A stretch of 64,000 nt of DNA from positions 1 through 64,000 of the forward strand of contig CBDCLE010000020.1 in the NCBI GenBank assembly GCA_965218585.1, in the 5' to 3' direction. Shown here in pieces: positions 9,484-53,649 of the stretch. Position 1 is the stretch's first letter. Every line of letters starts with the position of its first letter. The translations under genes were made by a program, and so were the position numbers. Source of the DNA: Terriglobia bacterium. Lineage in GTDB: Bacteria > Acidobacteriota > Terriglobia > 20CM-2-55-15. Under the pieces are notes generated by a model. It did no database searches. It saw only the letters and a program-made list of their open reading frames with translations, and was not told the origin of the DNA.

Positions 9484-9556
9484 TGGACCTGAGGGGGATC
9501 GAACCCCTGACCTCCTGACTGCCAGTCAGGCGCGCTCCCAGCTGCGCCACAGGCCC
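9484..9556 (-). tRNA. tRNA-Ala (GGC)
   Basis: GGGCCTGTGGCGCAGCTGGGAGCGCGCCTGACTGGCAGTCAGGAGGTCAGGGGTTCGATCCCCCTCAGGTCCA forms a cloverleaf with a G3:U70 pair and anticodon GGC. CCA is not encoded. Confidence 0.97.
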
Positions 9557-45427: not shown

Positions 45428-46270
45428 TCAAAAAAACTGGGTCGATACCTCGTTCTCGATGCAGATGTATTCGATCATGTTTGTGTCGAGCATAACGCGC
45501 TGGTTCACCCGGACGGTGAACGGCTCCGTGTATGCCATGGGGTCTTCGATGGTGACATCGATTTCCAGATTTCCGTAGTTCACTCGACGGAACCGCTCAG
45601 TTATCTTCCCTGACGAGGTCAACGGGCTGCCGTTGTAATCGAGCCACACATCATCCCTAAAACCGATCGTTTCCACGACCAGCGTGTCTCCCTCCCATCT
45701 GCCCACCGAGTAACCAAACCACCACGGTAACGGGTCGTTGTCGGGCAAGGACCGACCATCTGTGAAGATCTGCCGAATACCCGAGTTGGCTTCATTCAGA
45801 ATGACGATCACATCCGGAGTCTGGATGATCTTCCTCGGAAAGATATGCGTGTGATACAGCATGTGGCCCATCGGCAGACAGTGAGCGTCGGGGTTGCCTT
45901 GCGCATCGTCCGCCATGCGCTGTTGTCCGATCTCTTCAGCCCATTCTGTATACGGAACCTCCATCTGGGCTCCGATCTCAAAGAAGTTCGCGACAGGAGG
46001 CGAACCTGGCGGTGGGCTCGGGCGTTCCCCAGCAGCACCCCGACCCAGTTGTCCCCCTACCGGAGCACGCTGGCCACCGACGTTCTCCCAAAGGCCCGTC
46101 AAATCCGGTCTGCCTTCGCTTGTCCTGGGTATTGGCCCTTCCAGATCCGGTTCTCCGTCAGGCATTCTGGGGACTCCGGACGTGGGAAAAGCCGCCCACT
46201 GCGCCGAGAGCGAACCCGAAACGAGAGTCAAGGCAGCGATCAGACCAGCCGTACGCAGCAACATTTTCAT
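45428..46270 (-). CDS. Secreted hypothetical protein
   Basis: Signal peptide, GRPDLTGLW, NPDAHCLPMG, GYSVGRWEGDTLVVET, EYICIEN. Confidence 0.8.
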   Translation of the reverse strand: MKMLLRTAGLIAALTLVSGSLSAQWAAFPTSGVPRMPDGEPDLEGPIPRTSEGRPDLTGLWENVGGQRAPVGGQLGRGAAGERPSPPPGSPPVANFFEIGAQMEVPYTEWAEEIGQQRMADDAQGNPDAHCLPMGHMLYHTHIFPRKIIQTPDVIVILNEANSGIRQIFTDGRSLPDNDPLPWWFGYSVGRWEGDTLVVETIGFRDDVWLDYNGSPLTSSGKITERFRRVNYGNLEIDVTIEDPMAYTEPFTVRVNQRVMLDTNMIEYICIENEVSTQFF

Positions 46271-46507
46271 CTTCAGCCTCCCGATTGGACGCGGTTGTAA
46301 CTATTGGAACAGTCTCCCGGATGACAGAGTCCGGAGTTTTTCCAAAAAGCAAGTCTATAGACCGAATGGGATTGGAAGCAATCAGAACGTCAGTGTTGCA
46401 AGGTGAGGCTGTTCACTGTTGGAATCCATTACAGTTTCTCTCCGATTATTGAAAAGGTAAGCTCCCTGGCGTAGGTTCCGGAAGACGCTAATCGAGCAGG
46501 AATAGTT

Positions 46508-46546
46508 CTCAACTTCCGAGAAGATGATTTCTCGGGACTTGACCTC
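46508..46546 (+). repeat. dif/Xer-like recombination site, copy A
   Basis: CTCA-ACTTCCGAGAA-GATGAT-TTCTCGGGACT-TGACCTC. 11-6-11 dyad core at 46512-46539. 35/39 identical to copy B. Confidence 0.8.
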
Positions 46547-46570
46547 TGTGGGAGGTAGGAGCGTTGGTTC

Positions 46571-46909
46571 CTAATTCTTGTTCCTGAACGGCAACGTAAA
46601 CTCGTCGTCCTGAATGTTGCACATCATTCTCGCGTGCACCTTGTACTCTCGCCACAGCTTGCCCGCTTCCTCGTCATCCGGCAAGAAACACCGACCCAGA
46701 TACATTCCATCTCTGGGCGTTGTTGAATACTTTACGTAATAGCAATCCGGACGGTCGGCAAGATCACCGAGAAGGCGGCTCAACAAGTCTTGGTCAGTCG
46801 CTGTAAAACAGAGCTTCTTTCGTGAGAACTCTTGTTCATCATTCCAGCCTGCACCTCGACGTCCCATGAAGACACCATTGTGAGTCACATGGAATGTATC
46901 TGAGTTCAA
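46571..46909 (-). CDS. Hypothetical protein (112 aa) carried between direct dif-like repeats
   Basis: Strong RBS AGGAGGTGA just upstream of TTG at 46909. ...KKLCF...CYYVKYS...DGMYLGRCF...QDD. Confidence 0.75.
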   Translation of the reverse strand: MNSDTFHVTHNGVFMGRRGAGWNDEQEFSRKKLCFTATDQDLLSRLLGDLADRPDCYYVKYSTTPRDGMYLGRCFLPDDEEAGKLWREYKVHARMMCNIQDDEFTLPFRNKN

Positions 46910-46945
46910 GAACTCACCTCCTGAATGGGCCTGTTCAACATTTAG

Positions 46946-46984
46946 CTCAACGTCCGACAAGATGATTTATCAGGACTTGACCTC
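46946..46984 (+). repeat. dif/Xer-like recombination site, copy B
   Basis: CTCA-ACGTCCGACAA-GATGAT-TTATCAGGACT-TGACCTC. Core at 46950-46977. Direct repeat of copy A at a 438-bp period. Confidence 0.8.
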
Positions 46985-46989
46985 GGAAA

Positions 46990-47132
46990 TCAGGGGACCG
47001 GCACCCGCATGGCATGCACCAAGGACATGCCGAGCACGTTGAGTAAAAATTGGCCGTCATCTTCATGTCTTCGGTCGTTAGCGCCAAATGGTGCACGCCA
47101 TGGGTCAGCGCCACGGGTTTTGTATATGCCAT
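46990..47132 (-). pseudogene. Truncated, frameshifted VOC/glyoxalase family gene
   Basis: MAYTKPVALTHGVHHLALTTEDMKMTANFY, then a shifted frame NVLGMSLVHAMRVP. Ends 5 bp from repeat B. Confidence 0.7.
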
Positions 47133-47228
47133 GGAAGCCTCCGTCAGGGAACGGGTACTGTGGACCGAAATGTAGTATTGGAGGCCGCCATGTTGCACAA
47201 TATGCCCCGAACCAAATTGGGAAAATCA

Positions 47229-48185
47229 ATGGCACCGTCCGAAACACGTATCGATGTACACCACCATGTGCTGCCTGAATTTTACAAGGACGCGCAGCGT
47301 GCCGCAGGTATTTCCGGCAGCGCATATCGCGGGTTTCCGGAATGGACACCGGAGAAATCGCTCGCGCTGATGAACGACCACCAGATCGCCTCCACCATTT
47401 TGTCGTTTACCGCGCCGGGCATCTATTTTGGCGACCCTGTCCAGACCTGCGATCTCGCGCGCCGGTGCAACGACTATCTGGCTGCCCTCGCGCAGGCCCA
47501 TCCCGGGCGTTTCGGGGGATTTGCGTTCCTTCCCTTACCGGATATCGATGCGTCCCTGGCGGAAATTGAACGGCTCGTGGACGATCTGAAACTCGACGGC
47601 ATTACGCTCCTGACCAGCGTCGATGAGCGCTATATCGGCCATCCGGATTTCGAGCCGGTCTATGAAGAGCTCAACCGGCGGCGGGTGGTAACCTTTATTC
47701 ACCCCTGTTATCCGCCGGGAACCGAGGCACGGGGCTGGAACATCCCGCGCATGATGATCGACTTCCCGTTCGAGACCACTCGCGTGGCCACCAATCTGAT
47801 CCTCAACGGAGTGATGGAACGACACCGGGACATCCCGTTTATCCTGTCACATGCGGGCGGCACGTTACCGTTCCTCGCCCATCGCATCGCCATCTTCGAC
47901 AAGAAAATATCGCTCCAGGACAACTACCCGGAAGGGGCACTCGCTTACATGAAACGGTTTTATTTCGACACAGCGCTGTCGGGCAACAAGGTACCGCTCG
48001 ATGCCTTGTCTGGGATTATAGATCCCTCGCACATTTTGTTTGGCAGCGATTACCCCTACGTGTCGGAAGATGTCGTCGCCATCGAGACCGACGGGTTGGA
48101 TAGCTACGTCGGCTATGATGAGACGACACACGCGATGATCAATCGCGGCAATGCCGAAAAACTGTTTCCGCGCTTCGCGGCTTAG
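47229..48185 (+). CDS. Amidohydrolase_2 family (ACMSD / aromatic decarboxylase-like)
   Basis: IDVHHH, FIHP, FETTR, LSHAGG, FYFDTA, LFGSDYP, GNA. Confidence 0.9.
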   Translation: MAPSETRIDVHHHVLPEFYKDAQRAAGISGSAYRGFPEWTPEKSLALMNDHQIASTILSFTAPGIYFGDPVQTCDLARRCNDYLAALAQAHPGRFGGFAFLPLPDIDASLAEIERLVDDLKLDGITLLTSVDERYIGHPDFEPVYEELNRRRVVTFIHPCYPPGTEARGWNIPRMMIDFPFETTRVATNLILNGVMERHRDIPFILSHAGGTLPFLAHRIAIFDKKISLQDNYPEGALAYMKRFYFDTALSGNKVPLDALSGIIDPSHILFGSDYPYVSEDVVAIETDGLDSYVGYDETTHAMINRGNAEKLFPRFAA

Positions 48186-48430
48186 GCCGATTGCACGATA
48201 GCCATTTCGGAAGCTTTACGAATTGCGGGGCGGTCCATCAGCCGTTTGCGCCAACGTAAAGGATTGCGACAGCCTCGATCGAGACCGGACCTGAAGTGTC
48301 GAACCTGCATTCGTCGCCTCGTTCGTTTCAGGTTCATCATCGATGACCGCTAAGGGGATACAGGCCCTGAGACCCCATCAAGGCGCTGGCACCCGTTCCT
48401 TCAGTTCTTCAAACCAGTTCAGGACAACGT

Positions 48431-48559
48431 TTATTTGGGGCGCGTTTTGAATCGGGAGGCAGCTTGGTTCAGGGAGTTGTGTAGTTCTTCCCAAGCTTTC
48501 TGCAGGCCTGGTTTCAGATCGTCCCAAGCTTCAGCAGTCGTTTCTTTCAATTCGCTCAA
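48431..48559 (-). pseudogene. C-terminal remnant of a small coiled-coil protein, cut by IS3
   Basis: Minus strand [42 protein letters not shown] begins exactly at the IS3 left end. Confidence 0.6.
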
Positions 48560-48613
48560 TGAACCGCCCCGGGTTTTCCGGAGACTCCATTTCTTGAGAG
48601 GATGGGAGTCATC

Positions 48614-49872
<1,259 letters not shown>

Positions 49873-49875
49873 TAG

Positions 49876-51612
49876 CCCGCATATTTCACCGATAGGACCA
49901 GAAAAGGCCGCCCTGTCTGGCATAAAGCGTTTTGAAATAAACGTTTAACAAGCCAAACGGAGACGGCCCTTATGAGAACAGAGTGTAACCAAACGACGTT
50001 CGAATTTCACGGACTTCTTCAACGAAAAGTGAAGGCGCGTTTTGACGGCGGAAAGATCACCTCCGACGCTGGGGTTCTGCTGTTGAGGGAAGTGGAAAAG
50101 CGAACGGGTCTGATCGCCGGACTGGCCGAGTGTTTCAGGGATTACCGGGACGCGAGGTTGATCGAACACACGGTGAGCGAGTTATTGGGGCAGCGCGTCT
50201 ACGGACTCTGTCTGGGCTACGAGGATCTGAACGATCATGACCAACTGCGGACCGATCCGATGCTGGCCGTGGCGGTGGATAAGGCCGATCCACTGGGGGA
50301 GAAGCGGCGGCAGGCCCGAGACCGGGGAAAAGCGTTGGCGGGCAAGTGTACGCTGAACCGGTTGGAACTGACCGGGGAGCAAGTCGATGGGAAGGAGCGG
50401 TACAAGAAGATTGCCATGGACCCGGACAAGATCGACCGCTGGATGGTGGATGCATTTGTGGCGGCTCACGGATCGGCGCCCGAGGAGATTGTTCTGGACC
50501 TGGATGCGACCGATGATCCGATCCATGGCCATCAGGAAGGACGGTTCTTTCACGGCTACTACGGCAACTACTGTTATCTGCCGCTCTACATCTTTTCGGG
50601 AGAGCATCTGCTATGCGCCCGGTTGCGGTGCTCCAATGTCGACGGTGCGGACGGCGCCGTCGAGGAATTGAACCGCATCATCGGCCAGATCCGGCAGAGC
50701 TGGCCGGAGGTGTCGATTATCATCCGGGCCGACTCGGGCTTTTGCCGGGATGAATTGCTGAGTTGGTGCGAGGCCCACCAGGTCGATTACGTGGTGGGTC
50801 TGGCCAAGAACGATCGGCTCAAGCGCGAGATCGCTGAATCGATGAGTCAGGCCGAAGCCGAGTTTAACGACACCGGGAAACCGGCGCGGGTGTTTAACGA
50901 TTTCCGGTATCGCACTCGGAAGAGCTGGACCTGCACCCGACGCGTCATCGGCAAGGCCGAGTTCCTGGAGAAAGGCGCCAATCCTCGATTCGTTGTGACC
51001 TCACTGTCGCCGGAACGCCTGGACGCCCGCGCCCTCTATGAAGACTTTTACTGTGCGCGGGGCGACATGGAAAATCGCATCAAGGAACAGCAGTTGGATC
51101 TATTCGCCGACCGGACCAGCGCGGCAACCATGCGCGCCAATCAACTCCGGCTCTATCTGTCCTCGGCCGCCTACATGCTCCTGCACGCGTTACGCCGTCT
51201 GGGACTGAAGAATACCGATCTGGCCCGCGCTCAGTGCCAGACGATCCGCTTGAAGCTCCTCAAGATCGGAGCTCAAGTCCGTCTGACGGTTCGCAACATC
51301 TGGATCTCCATGTCGGAAGCCTATCCCTACGCCGAGGTCTTTGCCCTCGTCCATCGAAACCTGCAGGCGCTTCCTCTGCGCTGCTGAGAACCGACCCGAT
51401 CCCCTGCGCCAAAATCGACTCGCTCTTTTCGGCTCCGCCGAGGTTTGTCTCAGTGCGTTTCGTCACCCTCTTCTGAACCCGAAAACGCAGCAACTCCCGC
51501 TTGTCGACACCGCCGAGTCACGCCACACATGCCCAATTCGAACCCAGATCCTCCCGAATCCGATTCTTACTGCCCAAATCCCCCTGATCGCCGGACTGGT
51601 GAAACATGCGGG
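49876..51612 (+). mobile_element. IS1380-family insertion sequence (1737 bp)
   Basis: IRs CCCGCATATTTCACC / GGTGAAACATGCGGG. CTAG duplicated at 49872-49875 and 51613-51616. Confidence 0.93.
49972..51387 (+). CDS. IS1380 transposase
   Basis: FDGGKITSDAG, GYEDLND, LDLDATDD, RADSGF, YCARGDMENRIKE. Confidence 0.95.
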   Translation: MRTECNQTTFEFHGLLQRKVKARFDGGKITSDAGVLLLREVEKRTGLIAGLAECFRDYRDARLIEHTVSELLGQRVYGLCLGYEDLNDHDQLRTDPMLAVAVDKADPLGEKRRQARDRGKALAGKCTLNRLELTGEQVDGKERYKKIAMDPDKIDRWMVDAFVAAHGSAPEEIVLDLDATDDPIHGHQEGRFFHGYYGNYCYLPLYIFSGEHLLCARLRCSNVDGADGAVEELNRIIGQIRQSWPEVSIIIRADSGFCRDELLSWCEAHQVDYVVGLAKNDRLKREIAESMSQAEAEFNDTGKPARVFNDFRYRTRKSWTCTRRVIGKAEFLEKGANPRFVVTSLSPERLDARALYEDFYCARGDMENRIKEQQLDLFADRTSAATMRANQLRLYLSSAAYMLLHALRRLGLKNTDLARAQCQTIRLKLLKIGAQVRLTVRNIWISMSEAYPYAEVFALVHRNLQALPLRC

Positions 51613-51616
51613 CTAG

Positions 51617-51773
51617 CCAGTCGGTCACTATCCTTGGCGAACTCTTCCGGAAGGGTCTTGATCGCGACGTCACGACCAAGTTTCGTGTCCTCGGCACGCC
51701 ACACTTCCCCCATACCTCCTTTACCCAAGAGCGAGAGGAACACTTAGTGGCCGAGTTTGGTGCCGGATTCCAT
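51617..51773 (-). pseudogene. N-terminal remnant of a Hanks-type Ser/Thr protein kinase
   Basis: [52 protein letters not shown], with an internal TAA and cut at the IS1380 CTAG. Confidence 0.88.
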
Positions 51774-51848
51774 GTTTAAAGTGTGTCGCTGAAATAACCG
51801 TGAAAAACTCGGTAAAGGACACTAAGGCAGGAAGTTAGGCGCTATTAA

Positions 51849-51891
51849 ATTCTCAGGTCCTCACAAACGACCTTGTCGGACGTTGAGAATC
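51849..51891 (-). repeat. dif/Xer-like recombination site, copy C (inverted relative to A and B)
   Basis: Minus strand ATTCTCA-ACGTCCGACAA-GGTCGT-TTGTGAGGACC-TGAGAAT. Core at 51856-51883. Left arm identical to copy B. Confidence 0.72.
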
Positions 51892-52442
51892 CGATCTCTA
51901 GAATAAAAAGTCCTAATCTTAGTTCTTGTATTTAATTTCAAGCACTTAGACGTGTACCGCCTATCCGGACATGTGGAATTTGCCCAAGGATCCCGAAGTC
52001 CGCGTCCATCCGGGAAACCTGAAATGTTCCGCAACAATTACCCGCGAAAAACGCCGTTTCGTTTACCGATATGTGCGACAGACGCTCGGGCCTTTTTGTT
52101 TGCTGCTCAACAGGTTCCCAGGACCCTCACGTTTCTCGCTCAACCTGCCCGGACAGTGTCCACAACATCCTCAGATTTGAAGTGCCCGCACGGCCGCGCG
52201 CGGGTTGATATAACACCCATATAACGGCACTTGTCAGAGCTGCCATAGTCGTCAGCCCCTGCTTATATCGCTTATCCGCACGCAAGATCAAACTCTAATA
52301 CGGCTTGATGGTCGTGTGGCCGTCCAGGTAGTCGAAGTAGATCGGCCGGCCGGTCGAGAGCAGGTAATGGAGGTTCCGGAGGTTCCGTTCGCGCCGCGCG
52401 GTACCCCTCCAGTTTGCGTACCGCTCGAAAGTCAGCGCCTGG

Positions 52443-53106
52443 CTTGGTTTCTTCGGCCCGCAGTCCGCTGTAGATACCGTCGGCCCAGACATAGACCCAG
52501 CGATCGGCATCCAATCGCTCCTCGCATCCCCGGCGGTACTGCTCGGCCCAGACCTGTTTCAACCGCGATACCGTGCTCGCCGACAGGCCCTGCGCCTGGG
52601 GTCCGACAAGAACTTTTAGAGCGTCACCCATCTCGCCGCTGGAGACGCCTTTCAAATACAACCACGGCACCGCTGCTTCCAGCGATTTCGTTTTCCGAAT
52701 GTAGGGAGGTACCAGGGCCGACCGGAACGTTACCGGGTCGCCAGTCTTCGCTCGGACTTTCGGGATCTGGACCGTTACCGGCCCCAAACCGGTCTGCAGT
52801 TCACGTTCAGGCAGATAACCGTTGCGCACCACCCCGGCGTTGCCCGTCTCGGTTCTCCGATCGCCGTGGTGGGATAGCAGTTCCGCCAATTCGGTTTCCA
52901 CCGCGCGTTGGATCAGTTGCTGAGCTCCAACTCGTAGTAGCTCTGTTATCGGATCCTCAATCGTCTCTCGACCCTCCGGTCCATTCACGTTACTCTTGCT
53001 CATAGTGGCGTATCTCCCTTGGTTGCTTTGAAGTCTGGTAAACAACAAATCAACCAGATACGCCGCTCTTCCTCAATCCCTTAAACACCAGATTCGGTTA
53101 TAACTC
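52443..53106 (-). mobile_element. Truncated IS256-family element (one end plus 5' part of the transposase, ATG 53003)
   Basis: VRNGYLPER, IPKVR, YLKGVS, WADGIY, then homology stops. Terminal GAGTTATAACCGAATCTGGTGTTT at 53106. Confidence 0.85.
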
Positions 53107-53454
53107 GATGGCGGCGCCTTCGCGCTTAAAGACGGCGTTGCCGAGATAGTGGTCCCCGTGGTCTTGCCCGTTGACGACCCATTTGATAGGGTCGGCCGTT
53201 TTCTTGCGGATCTCCGCCAGCAGCGCTTCGGCGGCGCGCCGATTTCCCTGGGAGTCGACGATGAGTACCCCTTCCTCGGTGATCAGCACGGTGGAGTTGG
53301 AAGCTCCACCCGTGTAGTAGAAGTAGAGGTCGGGGCCGACCGGTGTGAGCGAGAAGGCGCTCTGCGCCTTCATCGCAGACCACTCGCCGCTGACGGCGAT
53401 TCCCAGCAGCAGCGCCAGCAGGACCGTACGCATCATGGGCATGCGCAGTGTCAT
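53107..53454 (-). pseudogene. Metallo-beta-lactamase-fold protein, 3'-truncated by IS256
   Basis: Signal peptide, NSTVLITEEGVLIVD, VVNGQDHGDHYLGN, then runs into the IS end. Confidence 0.8.
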
Positions 53455-53626
53455 GGTGCTTTCCTTTCAGCCGGATTTAGTTTTTTCCCTTCCGGCTCGT
53501 GAGTATACATCCATCTGCCTCTGGCTGAGCCTTTCCAGCGTACGATTATCTCCGGAGGCCAGTTCGCAACTCCGGCAGAGACATTTAATGCATGTTGTTG
53601 CATCGACCGGACCGGTTGAGCCGGCA

Positions 53627-53649
53627 GACATTGTTGGACGTTGAGAATC
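53627..53649 (-). repeat. Partial copy D of the dif-like repeat
   Basis: GACATTGTTGGACGTTGAGAATC versus GACCTTGTCGGACGTTGAGAATC at copy C (21/23). The second arm is degenerate. Confidence 0.6.

Follow-up and report, generated by a model that had tools for sequence, protein, structure and literature searches.

A 438-bp one-gene unit between copies of a genus-specific palindrome in a Terriglobia genome, and its likeness to integron cassettes

The paired sites and the gene between them

The window analysed here is the first 64,000 nt of contig CBDCLE010000020.1 (C20:1-64000) in assembly GCA_965218585.1 of a Terriglobia bacterium. This genome, G000, is assembled in 26 contigs and is 95% complete. 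At positions 46508-46546 and 46946-46984, the window carries two copies of a short repeat that are 35/39 identical (90%) and lie 438 bp apart from start to start, with a single gene between them. Each copy is a dyad of two 11-bp arms around a 6-bp spacer, GATGAT, that is common to both. Copy A reads ACTTCCGAGAA-GATGAT-TTCTCGGGACT and its arms are complementary at 9/11 positions; copy B reads ACGTCCGACAA-GATGAT-TTATCAGGACT, with 6/11 (dyad arms and the comparison with dif below were counted by hand). The coordinates, the identity, the 438-bp period and the shared 11-6-11 dyad had been proposed in an initial annotation made from the sequence, and all of them are confirmed. With an nhmmer profile built from 42 copies, site A extends over 46505-46546 on the plus strand (43.5 bits, E 7.9e-11; repeat family D5) and site B over 46946-46986 on the same strand (51.6 bits, E 2.3e-13). 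In site A, the plus-strand order is conserved arm, GATGAT, variable arm.

The cassette gene occupies 46571-46909 on the minus strand and encodes a protein of 112 aa. It has a TTG start codon and a ribosome-binding site, AGGAGGTG, 5 nt upstream. Site A lies 24 nt 3' of the gene, and site B lies 36 nt upstream of its start codon. No sigma-70-like promoter was found within 46200-47300, and no T-run terminator pattern was found at the window sites. The earlier description of a lone open reading frame with little room for a promoter is therefore borne out, and the unit is apparently a promoterless one-gene module.

The 112-aa protein has 270 homologues at E<=0.001. The best 120 of the 270 are up to 74% identical and 96-171 aa long, and the best homologue is in a Vicinamibacterales metagenome-assembled genome (MAG). 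Thirty-one columns are invariant among 23 aligned sequences, including C34, C56, C74 and C97, and the protein matched 0 Pfam families. Its spread is patchy, with members in Planctomycetota, Myxococcota, Bdellovibrionota, Hydrogenedentota, Rickettsiales, a Rhodoferax MAG and the Vicinamibacterales MAG. In 39 loci of other phyla that carry the gene (mostly Planctomycetota, Myxococcota, Bdellovibrionota and Hydrogenedentota), a profile scan found no copy of the site, apart from one 11-bit match at chance level, and a crude palindrome scan beside the gene in 9/39 of these loci gave nothing consistent. The expectation that homologues of the gene would be flanked by the same sites elsewhere did not hold in these loci.

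A genus-specific site family and its exchange point

Sites A and B are members of a family of imperfect palindromes ~44 nt long. Within the window, the left 16-mer of the repeat has 4 matches at <=3 mismatches against 0.68 expected, and 0/100 shuffles reach 4. In G000 it has 124 matches, 25 of them exact, against 59 for a reversed control. The right-arm 15-mer alone is not significant (3 window matches against 2.15 expected; 32/100 shuffles reach 3). A motif scan of the genome and its relatives found 93 copies at E<0.01 on 19/26 contigs of G000 and >100 copies in each of two sister species, G001 and G003. The comparison covered four sister species of the same genus, G001-G004. A 20-mer of the conserved arm, allowing <=2 mismatches, occurs 63 times in G000, 156 in G001, 103 in G003, 8 in G002 and 3 in G004. 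Outside the genus, it has one match each in 2/36 other relatives, with 0-1 in controls. The palindrome family is genus-specific. Rfam has no match at the site at E<=1, and a metagenome scan with the site pattern matched 11 short contigs.

For alignment, 259 well-scoring copies from three genomes (G000, G001 and G003) were placed on the profile columns; 798 kb of G001 and G003 contained 226 further copies, in long runs of one orientation. Along the direction of the genes, the consensus runs from a variable arm (ATTCTCAAs or GAGGTCAAG, followed by TCC/GCC and TGAsAA) through the spacer ATCATC to a conserved arm, TTsTC GGAC G TTGAGAAT. On the opposite strand, the centre is GATGATT in 197/259 sites. 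When same-strand copies separated by gaps of <=4 kb are grouped, 58/93 copies in G000 fall into 17 clusters of 2-10 sites, leaving 35 singletons. The largest clusters comprise 10 and 7 copies; the two window sites A and B make up a cluster of two. The pair is thus one of 17 such clusters, not the single special cassette first supposed. Adjacent sites in the three genomes point in the same direction in 173/222 pairs. The cargo is varied, with one gene per unit. In the arrays on contigs C4 and C2, it includes amidohydrolases, a cupin, DUF3024, cytochrome c, DUF6282, an outer-membrane barrel and a cyclase, together with an esterase, an ankyrin protein, PCMT, a glyoxalase, a metallo-beta-lactamase fold and a molybdopterin oxidoreductase.

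Modules bounded by these sites are common to several species. The module at C12:18891-20164 of G000 (an M90 peptidase with SEC-C) is 97.9% identical over 1274/1274 nt to one on C2 of G003, and 91.8% identical to its counterpart in G001. A DUF3024 module is 92.6% identical between G000 C4 and G001 C9, a PCMT module is 92.4% identical between G000 C2 and G001 C9, and further G001-G003 module pairs share 92-98%. Core and syntenic DNA between these species is 72-82% identical (about 75%). The DUF3024 and PCMT modules are neighbours in G001 and lie on separate contigs in G000. In the module alignments, homology begins and ends inside the sites, and the DNA beyond is unrelated.

The exchange point was mapped with pairs of sites that share one flank only, the other flank being without BLAST similarity. 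For the conserved-arm flank, the strict set had 8 pairs, which collapsed to six independent pairs after one segmental duplication was merged; these share 94-99% identity over >=120 nt of that flank alone. The first difference inside the site falls at base 1 or 2 after CTCAA in 4/6, at column 19 in 1/6 and at column 30 in 1/6. A difference within columns 12-19 is present in 5/6. In a looser set of 28 pairs that are not mutually independent, column 4 agrees in 19/22 (baseline 0.57), column 12 in 16/28 (0.52) and column 19 in 11/28 (0.50). Co-inheritance ends at CTCAA/C in 4/6 independent pairs and the other two are compatible with this point, and the alignments of modules shared between species give further examples of the same boundary. 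Judged from these comparisons, the stretch inherited with the conserved-arm flank reaches as far as ...ATTCTCAA and stops there. Read on the gene strand, CTCAA/C becomes G/TTGAGA. According to a review, strand exchange by integron integrases takes place between bases 1 and 2 of GTTRRRY (PMC8876359).

The variable-arm flank is less informative. Thirty-eight pairs share >=90% of it, and agreement reaches through column 31 (35/37). The test on this side is weak because 33/38 pairs rest on a conserved kinase tail, described below, and only two are recent. Three columns are hypervariable: column 12 (C173/G39/T35/A2), column 19 (G143/C114/A1) and column 30 (C113/A86/G56/T2). Column 12 is linked to column 19 (p=6e-5). 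In site A, columns 12, 18-19 and 30-31 correspond to window positions 46519, 46525-46526 and 46537-46538. The hypervariable columns are unlinked to either flank, even between 99.8%-identical modules, as in TTGTC against TTAAC at G001 C2:265584 and C6:45050; quasi-palindrome template switching may be the cause.

Applied to the window, the exchange point mapped in other members of the family would delimit a 438-bp integron-type cassette unit at 46513-46950 on the minus strand, from the base after CTCAA in site A to CTCAA in site B. On the gene strand, such a unit would begin 5'-TTGAGC..., continue through the gene and end with most of site A. The proposal of a mobile gene cassette stands in part. 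Sites of this family do bound modules that move between arrays and species, and the mobile status of the window cassette itself rests on the behaviour of the family, because neither a second copy, a matching flank nor a deletion form was found for it.

An integron-type reading and its alternatives

Sites A and B are read here, with moderate confidence, as recombination junctions between single-gene modules. The sites would be attC-like, and the window would contain a cluster resembling a CALIN (an attC cluster that lacks integron integrases), holding a 438-bp promoterless cassette. Along the genes, a module would consist of TTGAGAAT..., a leader, the gene, the variable arm, ATCATC and the conserved arm as far as ...GGAC(G), and neighbouring modules would be exchanged at G/TTGAGA in the conserved arm. 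The reaction would be of the integron type, with single-strand hairpins as substrates. The enzyme would be the integron integrase IntI acting in trans; IntI is encoded in three sister species and was not found in G000. The window cassette would have arrived by this integron-type route.

The core sequence counts in favour of this reading. On the gene strand it is GTTGAGA, which fits GTTRRRY at 6/7 positions, and the base before TT is G in 173/249 sites. The variable arm carries TCTCAAC, TCTCAAG or GGTCAAG, which fit the partner consensus RYYYAAC at 5-6/7. Each site is 42-46 nt long, with an 8-bp outer stem, a 4-bp middle stem, an inner stem of ~5 bp, a 6-nt loop and single-base bulges in both arms. 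Exchange at the G/TT of a GTTRRRY-like core and modules common to several species are shared with integron attC sites, and IS110/IS1111-type insertion sequences (IS) also choose attC as a target. Another shared feature is an imperfect palindrome after single, mostly promoterless genes. Clusters of attC without an integron integrase are an established category, the CALINs (Cury et al. 2016, PMC4889954), and the 17 clusters of G000, sites A and B included, agree with its definition in having at least two same-strand sites <4 kb apart with no intI found. Using TIGR02249 with its curated cut-off of 265 bits on 41 genomes, IntI scored 440-458 bits in G001, G002 and G003 and was over the cut-off in 9/24 other genomes of the family and in 10/41 genomes searched. 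The three intI loci of the genus are not mutually syntenic, and the flanking DNA of the G003 locus occurs in G000 without intI.

A number of observations weigh against an integron-type system. attC sites are usually 57-141 nt long. The sites here are shorter than that range, and their inner stem of ~5 bp barely covaries (column 19 with its pairing partner, column 30, p=0.03). Single-strand folds are weak, at -4.6 to -9 kcal/mol (z -1.3 to -2.7). The longest open reading frame between co-oriented copies points to the variable arm, as expected, in only 88/138 cases (25/33 in G000), a count blurred by IS insertions. The best TIGR02249 match in the 95% complete G000 assembly reaches 83.7 bits, so that no intI was found there, and in G001, G002 and G003 no family site lies within 20 kb of intI at E<=10. 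Repeat arrays were not found beside the intI genes of G001-G003 or of four other genomes of the family, by repeat searches that can miss attC. No complete integron, with intI adjoining an array and an attI site, was found. The numbers of sites do not track IntI: G002 has IntI and 8 sites, and G000, without it, has 63. Because no sites or arrays lie near intI, the link between IntI and the sites comes solely from the core sequence and the exchange point. Columns 12-19 should travel with the variable-arm flank under the integron model, but among the 38 pairs column 12 agrees in only 14 and column 19 in 17. Of the two recent variable-arm-flank pairs, one shows no difference from column 5 onwards; the other has 10 differences in the site, of which 7 lie at column 5 or later. 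The model also fails to account for the inverted copies found upstream of kinase genes and for chimeras in which half sites meet at the centre.

The window cassette adds further points of this kind. Among the five genomes of the genus, the only other trace found of its module is a fragment, truncated by IS3, of a paralogue with 79% identity at G000:C4:203879-204022, and the flanks of the window module match no other site flank by BLAST. Public contigs from four runs (~2x depth) keep the window arrangement and break at the sites. A 438-bp deletion, an empty site and a circle joint, which the initial annotation had suggested looking for, were not found in the five genomes or in the ~2x contigs, the latter being uninformative either way. 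Joints in the reads at 46980->48388 and similar positions came from other genomic copies of the site plus kinase tail, and an apparent 400-nt skip in the read contigs had just 27 nt on one side.

The initial annotation had explained the pair as dif-like 11-6-11 sites, at which the host XerC and XerD would excise or insert the module by cutting at the GATGAT borders, as in the dif modules of Acinetobacter. The geometry and the constant 6-bp spacer do hold, XerC- and XerD-like genes occur in the genome (C10:73434-74219 and C3:185322-186149), 7/11 positions of the conserved arm agree with the XerC arm of dif, and some half-site chimeras join at the centre. A mechanism of this type is very improbable all the same. 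A scan with a generic dif pattern gave one perfect candidate, ATGTCGCATAA-TGAGTA-TTATGTCAAGT at C10:37495-37522, which is likely the chromosomal dif, and site B agrees with it at only 13/22 arm positions (XerD arm 5-6/11) and 1/6 spacer positions. At <=3 mismatches, the candidate occurs once in G000, G001 and G002 and twice in G003, and was not found in G004; the two G003 copies are 11 kb apart, an arrangement compatible with integration of an element at dif. Cutting at the spacer borders would require the conserved arm to be co-inherited with its own flank, but co-inheritance is lost earlier, within columns 12-19, in 5/6 independent pairs. These pairs agree neither with cutting at the spacer border nor with homologous crossovers spread evenly. 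dif modules alternate in orientation, whereas the arrays here are direct repeats, and several of the centre junctions are insertions of IS110-family elements and not recombinant sites. The Acinetobacter pdif or dif modules are similar in being accessory modules bounded by short tyrosine-recombinase-type sites of 11-6-11 appearance (PMC6449649, PMC7399989, PMC13141974), shuffled between replicons and targeted by IS elements (PMC10132070). The sites described here differ in being unlike the host dif, chromosomal and direct, with exchange outside the spacer. The system had also been thought to follow an undescribed principle; Xer-bounded modules in Acinetobacter and CALINs are both already described in the sources cited. 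It is extremely improbable that the repeat is the terminal inverted repeat of a miniature inverted-repeat transposable element (MITE) or an insertion sequence, with the bracketed gene as a passenger. Kinase units are flanked by inverted copies with their conserved arms outward, and a copy at 51848-51892 is inverted relative to site B. Against this, the repeat has no associated transposase, neighbouring copies are mostly direct (173/222), and the transposases near the sites belong to other elements with ends of their own.

Two further explanations do without a dedicated recombinase. The repeat could be a dispersed palindrome like the repetitive extragenic palindromic (REP) sequences, with modules swapped by homologous recombination, for example after DNA uptake, and with a second role as a landing pad for IS elements. 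REP sequences, bacterial interspersed mosaic elements (BIMEs) and REP doublets forming hairpins (REPINs) are short palindromes of imperfect symmetry that recur tens to hundreds of times, frequently 3' of genes, sometimes as inverted doublets, and serve as targets for IS110-type elements, and the copy number, the extragenic position often 3' of genes, the recurring inverted doublets and the IS110-type insertions are all matched here. In these doublets, two copies stand head to head ~60 nt apart: a unit's 3' site comes first, and the 5' site of the following kinase unit comes next. Columns 12, 18-19 and 30, taken as internal markers, show no linkage to either flank, and of the 12 PF00589 matches in G000 (11 over the cut-off: XerC-like, XerD-like and nine others) none lies beside an array. 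We nevertheless consider this explanation unlikely. Evenly spread crossovers predict shared columns 12-19 in most pairs, and these are absent in 5/6 (p<0.001 by a rough binomial estimate, if the pairs are independent). No copy of the repeat flanks the genes for Y1_Tnp, the type of the REP-associated tyrosine transposases (RAYTs), and the number of these genes (1-2 per genome, 12 matches in G002) does not track the repeat; the PF01797 matches at C10:115768-116097 and C3:160482-160829 have no adjoining copy, the nearest being 2.1 kb away, and were rejected as candidates. Long same-direction arrays that delimit exchangeable one-gene modules are untypical of REPs. The remaining possibility is that the palindrome ends or regulates transcripts of Ser/Thr-kinase/PD40 paralogues, that the cassettes are decayed kinase units with replaced interiors and that the palindrome plays no part in recombination. 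A remnant of a kinase tail lies within 90 nt before the site in 108/259 sites (42%), the kinase tails of G002 and G004 mostly lack a full site, and one subclass of sites, with the centre (A/G)TCGTT, lies upstream of kinase leaders in the opposite orientation. Proteins of the tail family end in ...LNWFEELKERVPVP. The single full-length member in G000 has Pkinase and PD40 repeats; 1/26 tail matches in G000 ends a frame of >1000 aa, and 25/26 end frames of <=534 aa, most of 18-100 aa. Such a purely regulatory role is improbable, since 151/259 sites carry no tail remnant, modules unrelated to kinases move between species with boundaries inside the site, the window sites show neither a terminator nor a promoter signal nor an Rfam match, and the conserved arm is kept at the sequence level in three species whose core DNA is ~75% identical.

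Overall, the cassette idea is partly supported: it holds at the family level, the dif/Xer mechanism is unsupported and the recombinase is putative. Among known systems, integron cassette arrays that lack a local integrase (CALINs) come closest, and the sites here are unusually short and conserved in sequence. Compared with attC, the sites here have ~44 nt, a very short and poorly paired inner stem and a highly conserved sequence. They are spread over at least 17 clusters where integrons have one array, and no integrase lies beside any array. In a further departure from attC, 42% of the sites carry the kinase remnant and some units have a leader of their own.

Kinase remnants, insertion elements and a possible origin of the sites

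The sites derive in part from kinase gene ends, or are at any rate linked to them, and the neighbourhood of sites A and B contains several pieces of kinase genes. A kinase 3'-end remnant (...RVPVP-stop) at 46987-47007 on the minus strand is fused to site B. It comprises ~20 nt of kinase tail and is joined to an unrelated 61-aa frame, and G001 and G003 have tens of matches to window positions 46946-47007 (87-95% identity). The 61-aa open frame itself (46950-47132, minus strand) runs into site B, matches 0 Pfam families and has no relative in G001 or G003; a guess that it is a glyoxalase-type N-terminus is unsupported. To the left of site A, a likeness of ~46349-46401 to kinase leaders amounted to ~17 nt by eye, had no BLAST match and was dismissed.

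Further right, a C-terminal kinase tail remnant (...VVLNWFEELKERVPAP), comprising the ~50 last codons, lies at 48378-48527 on the minus strand (open reading frame list and tail scan). The third copy of the palindrome in the window, at 51848-51892 on the minus strand (50.0 bits by nhmmer; inverted repeat I2), has the centre GGTCGTT and belongs to the subclass upstream of kinase leaders. It faces sites A and B, and over 150 nt its flank shares 80-85% identity with other kinase leaders. The gene it serves is represented by an N-terminal kinase fragment at 51567-51743 on the minus strand, with a weak Pkinase match (E 0.0017, positions 5-41/263). This fragment, a leader and ~58 codons, is cut off by an insertion sequence at 49872-51616, and the tail at 48378-48527 comes either from the same kinase gene or from another one. 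Over 48378-51892, the interior of a kinase/PD40 gene is replaced by two elements on the plus strand: an IS3-family element between the kinase remnants at 48560-49871 (inverted repeat I1; HTH_Tnp_1, rve and HTH_21), which carries an ALIL frameshift pseudoknot at 48892-49008, and an abutting DDE_Tnp_1_4 insertion sequence at 49872-51616 (inverted repeat I7; PF13701, 525.6 bits). Both elements are context and lie outside the cassette.

The fourth copy in the window, at 53628-53649 on the minus strand, consists of the conserved arm only (nhmmer E 0.0046, profile positions 3-24). At its centre it joins a different recurrent sequence (TGCCGGCTCAACCGG...), and this junction recurs at C3:347512, in G001 and in G004. 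Two different IS110-family elements are also inserted at site centres, with an uninterrupted allele seen in the comparison of G001 C11 and C6, and half sites, that of the fourth window copy among them, are joined at the centre by a third recurrent sequence (…TCAACCGGTCGATGCAACAC…). IS110/IS1111 elements pick their targets by guide RNA (PMC11187229, PMC11208160), so these insertions show a favoured landing pad and not what the site is. A second recurrent junction sequence (TGCCGGCTCAACCGGTCGATGCAACAC...), ~60 nt long and with internal CTGCCGG repeats, joins either arm of the site at the centre in several genomes. It was seen in G004, at G000 C3:347512 and at window positions 53560-53630, and may represent a leader belonging to another class of cassette or one end of an element.

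An IS91-family element with a tyrosine recombinase and a Y2/Zn-finger transposase starts directly after the conserved arm in G001 and G003. The tyrosine recombinase beside these sites was considered as the enzyme and rejected, as it is the first gene of this element. Its copy number does not track the sites: there are ~20 copies in G002, which has 8 sites. The element, with its Xer/IntI-like recombinase gene, has multiplied to these ~20 copies in G002 and to 6 identical copies in G001. It was not found in G000, except for an end remnant of ~40 nt beside the site at C24:160944.

Two other features of the window lie apart from these structures. The interval 52272-53454 holds an IS256-type (Transposase_mut) fragment, profile positions 22-175/379, beside a second truncated gene, the N-terminus of a metallo-beta-lactamase fold with a signal-like start (positions 2-67/196). 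A tRNA gene lies at 9484-9556 on the minus strand (Rfam, 64.2 bits).

A broader scenario can be put forward tentatively, as a speculative and rather doubtful one. The genus would then represent a lineage-wide cassette system in marine Acidobacteriota, with miniature, sequence-conserved attC-like sites of ~44 nt in dozens of small arrays and an integrase or other recombinase that is unlinked to them and acts in trans. The sites would have begun as a palindrome 3' of Ser/Thr-kinase genes, and new cassettes would arise when foreign genes replace the interior of a kinase unit and inherit its tail and site.

The origin of integron cassettes and of attC, and the activity of arrays without an integrase, are open questions. 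This genus offers hundreds of very short, nearly identical junctions, a module exchange between species that can be dated by identity, an exchange point that can be mapped by comparison and a possible parent structure, the kinase tail present at 42% of the sites. The present analysis adds the mapped exchange point, the likely true dif and IntI in sister species. If an integrase from a sister species or a Xer recombinase acts on the 44-nt site, it would define a minimal substrate and provide a simple test system. If no enzyme acts on it, the site would be a palindromic repeat that organises gene exchange by homology, which is less novel and still useful for reading genomes. If the broader scenario is true, the kinase origin of the sites would preserve a visible trace of the way in which cassettes and their sites arise.

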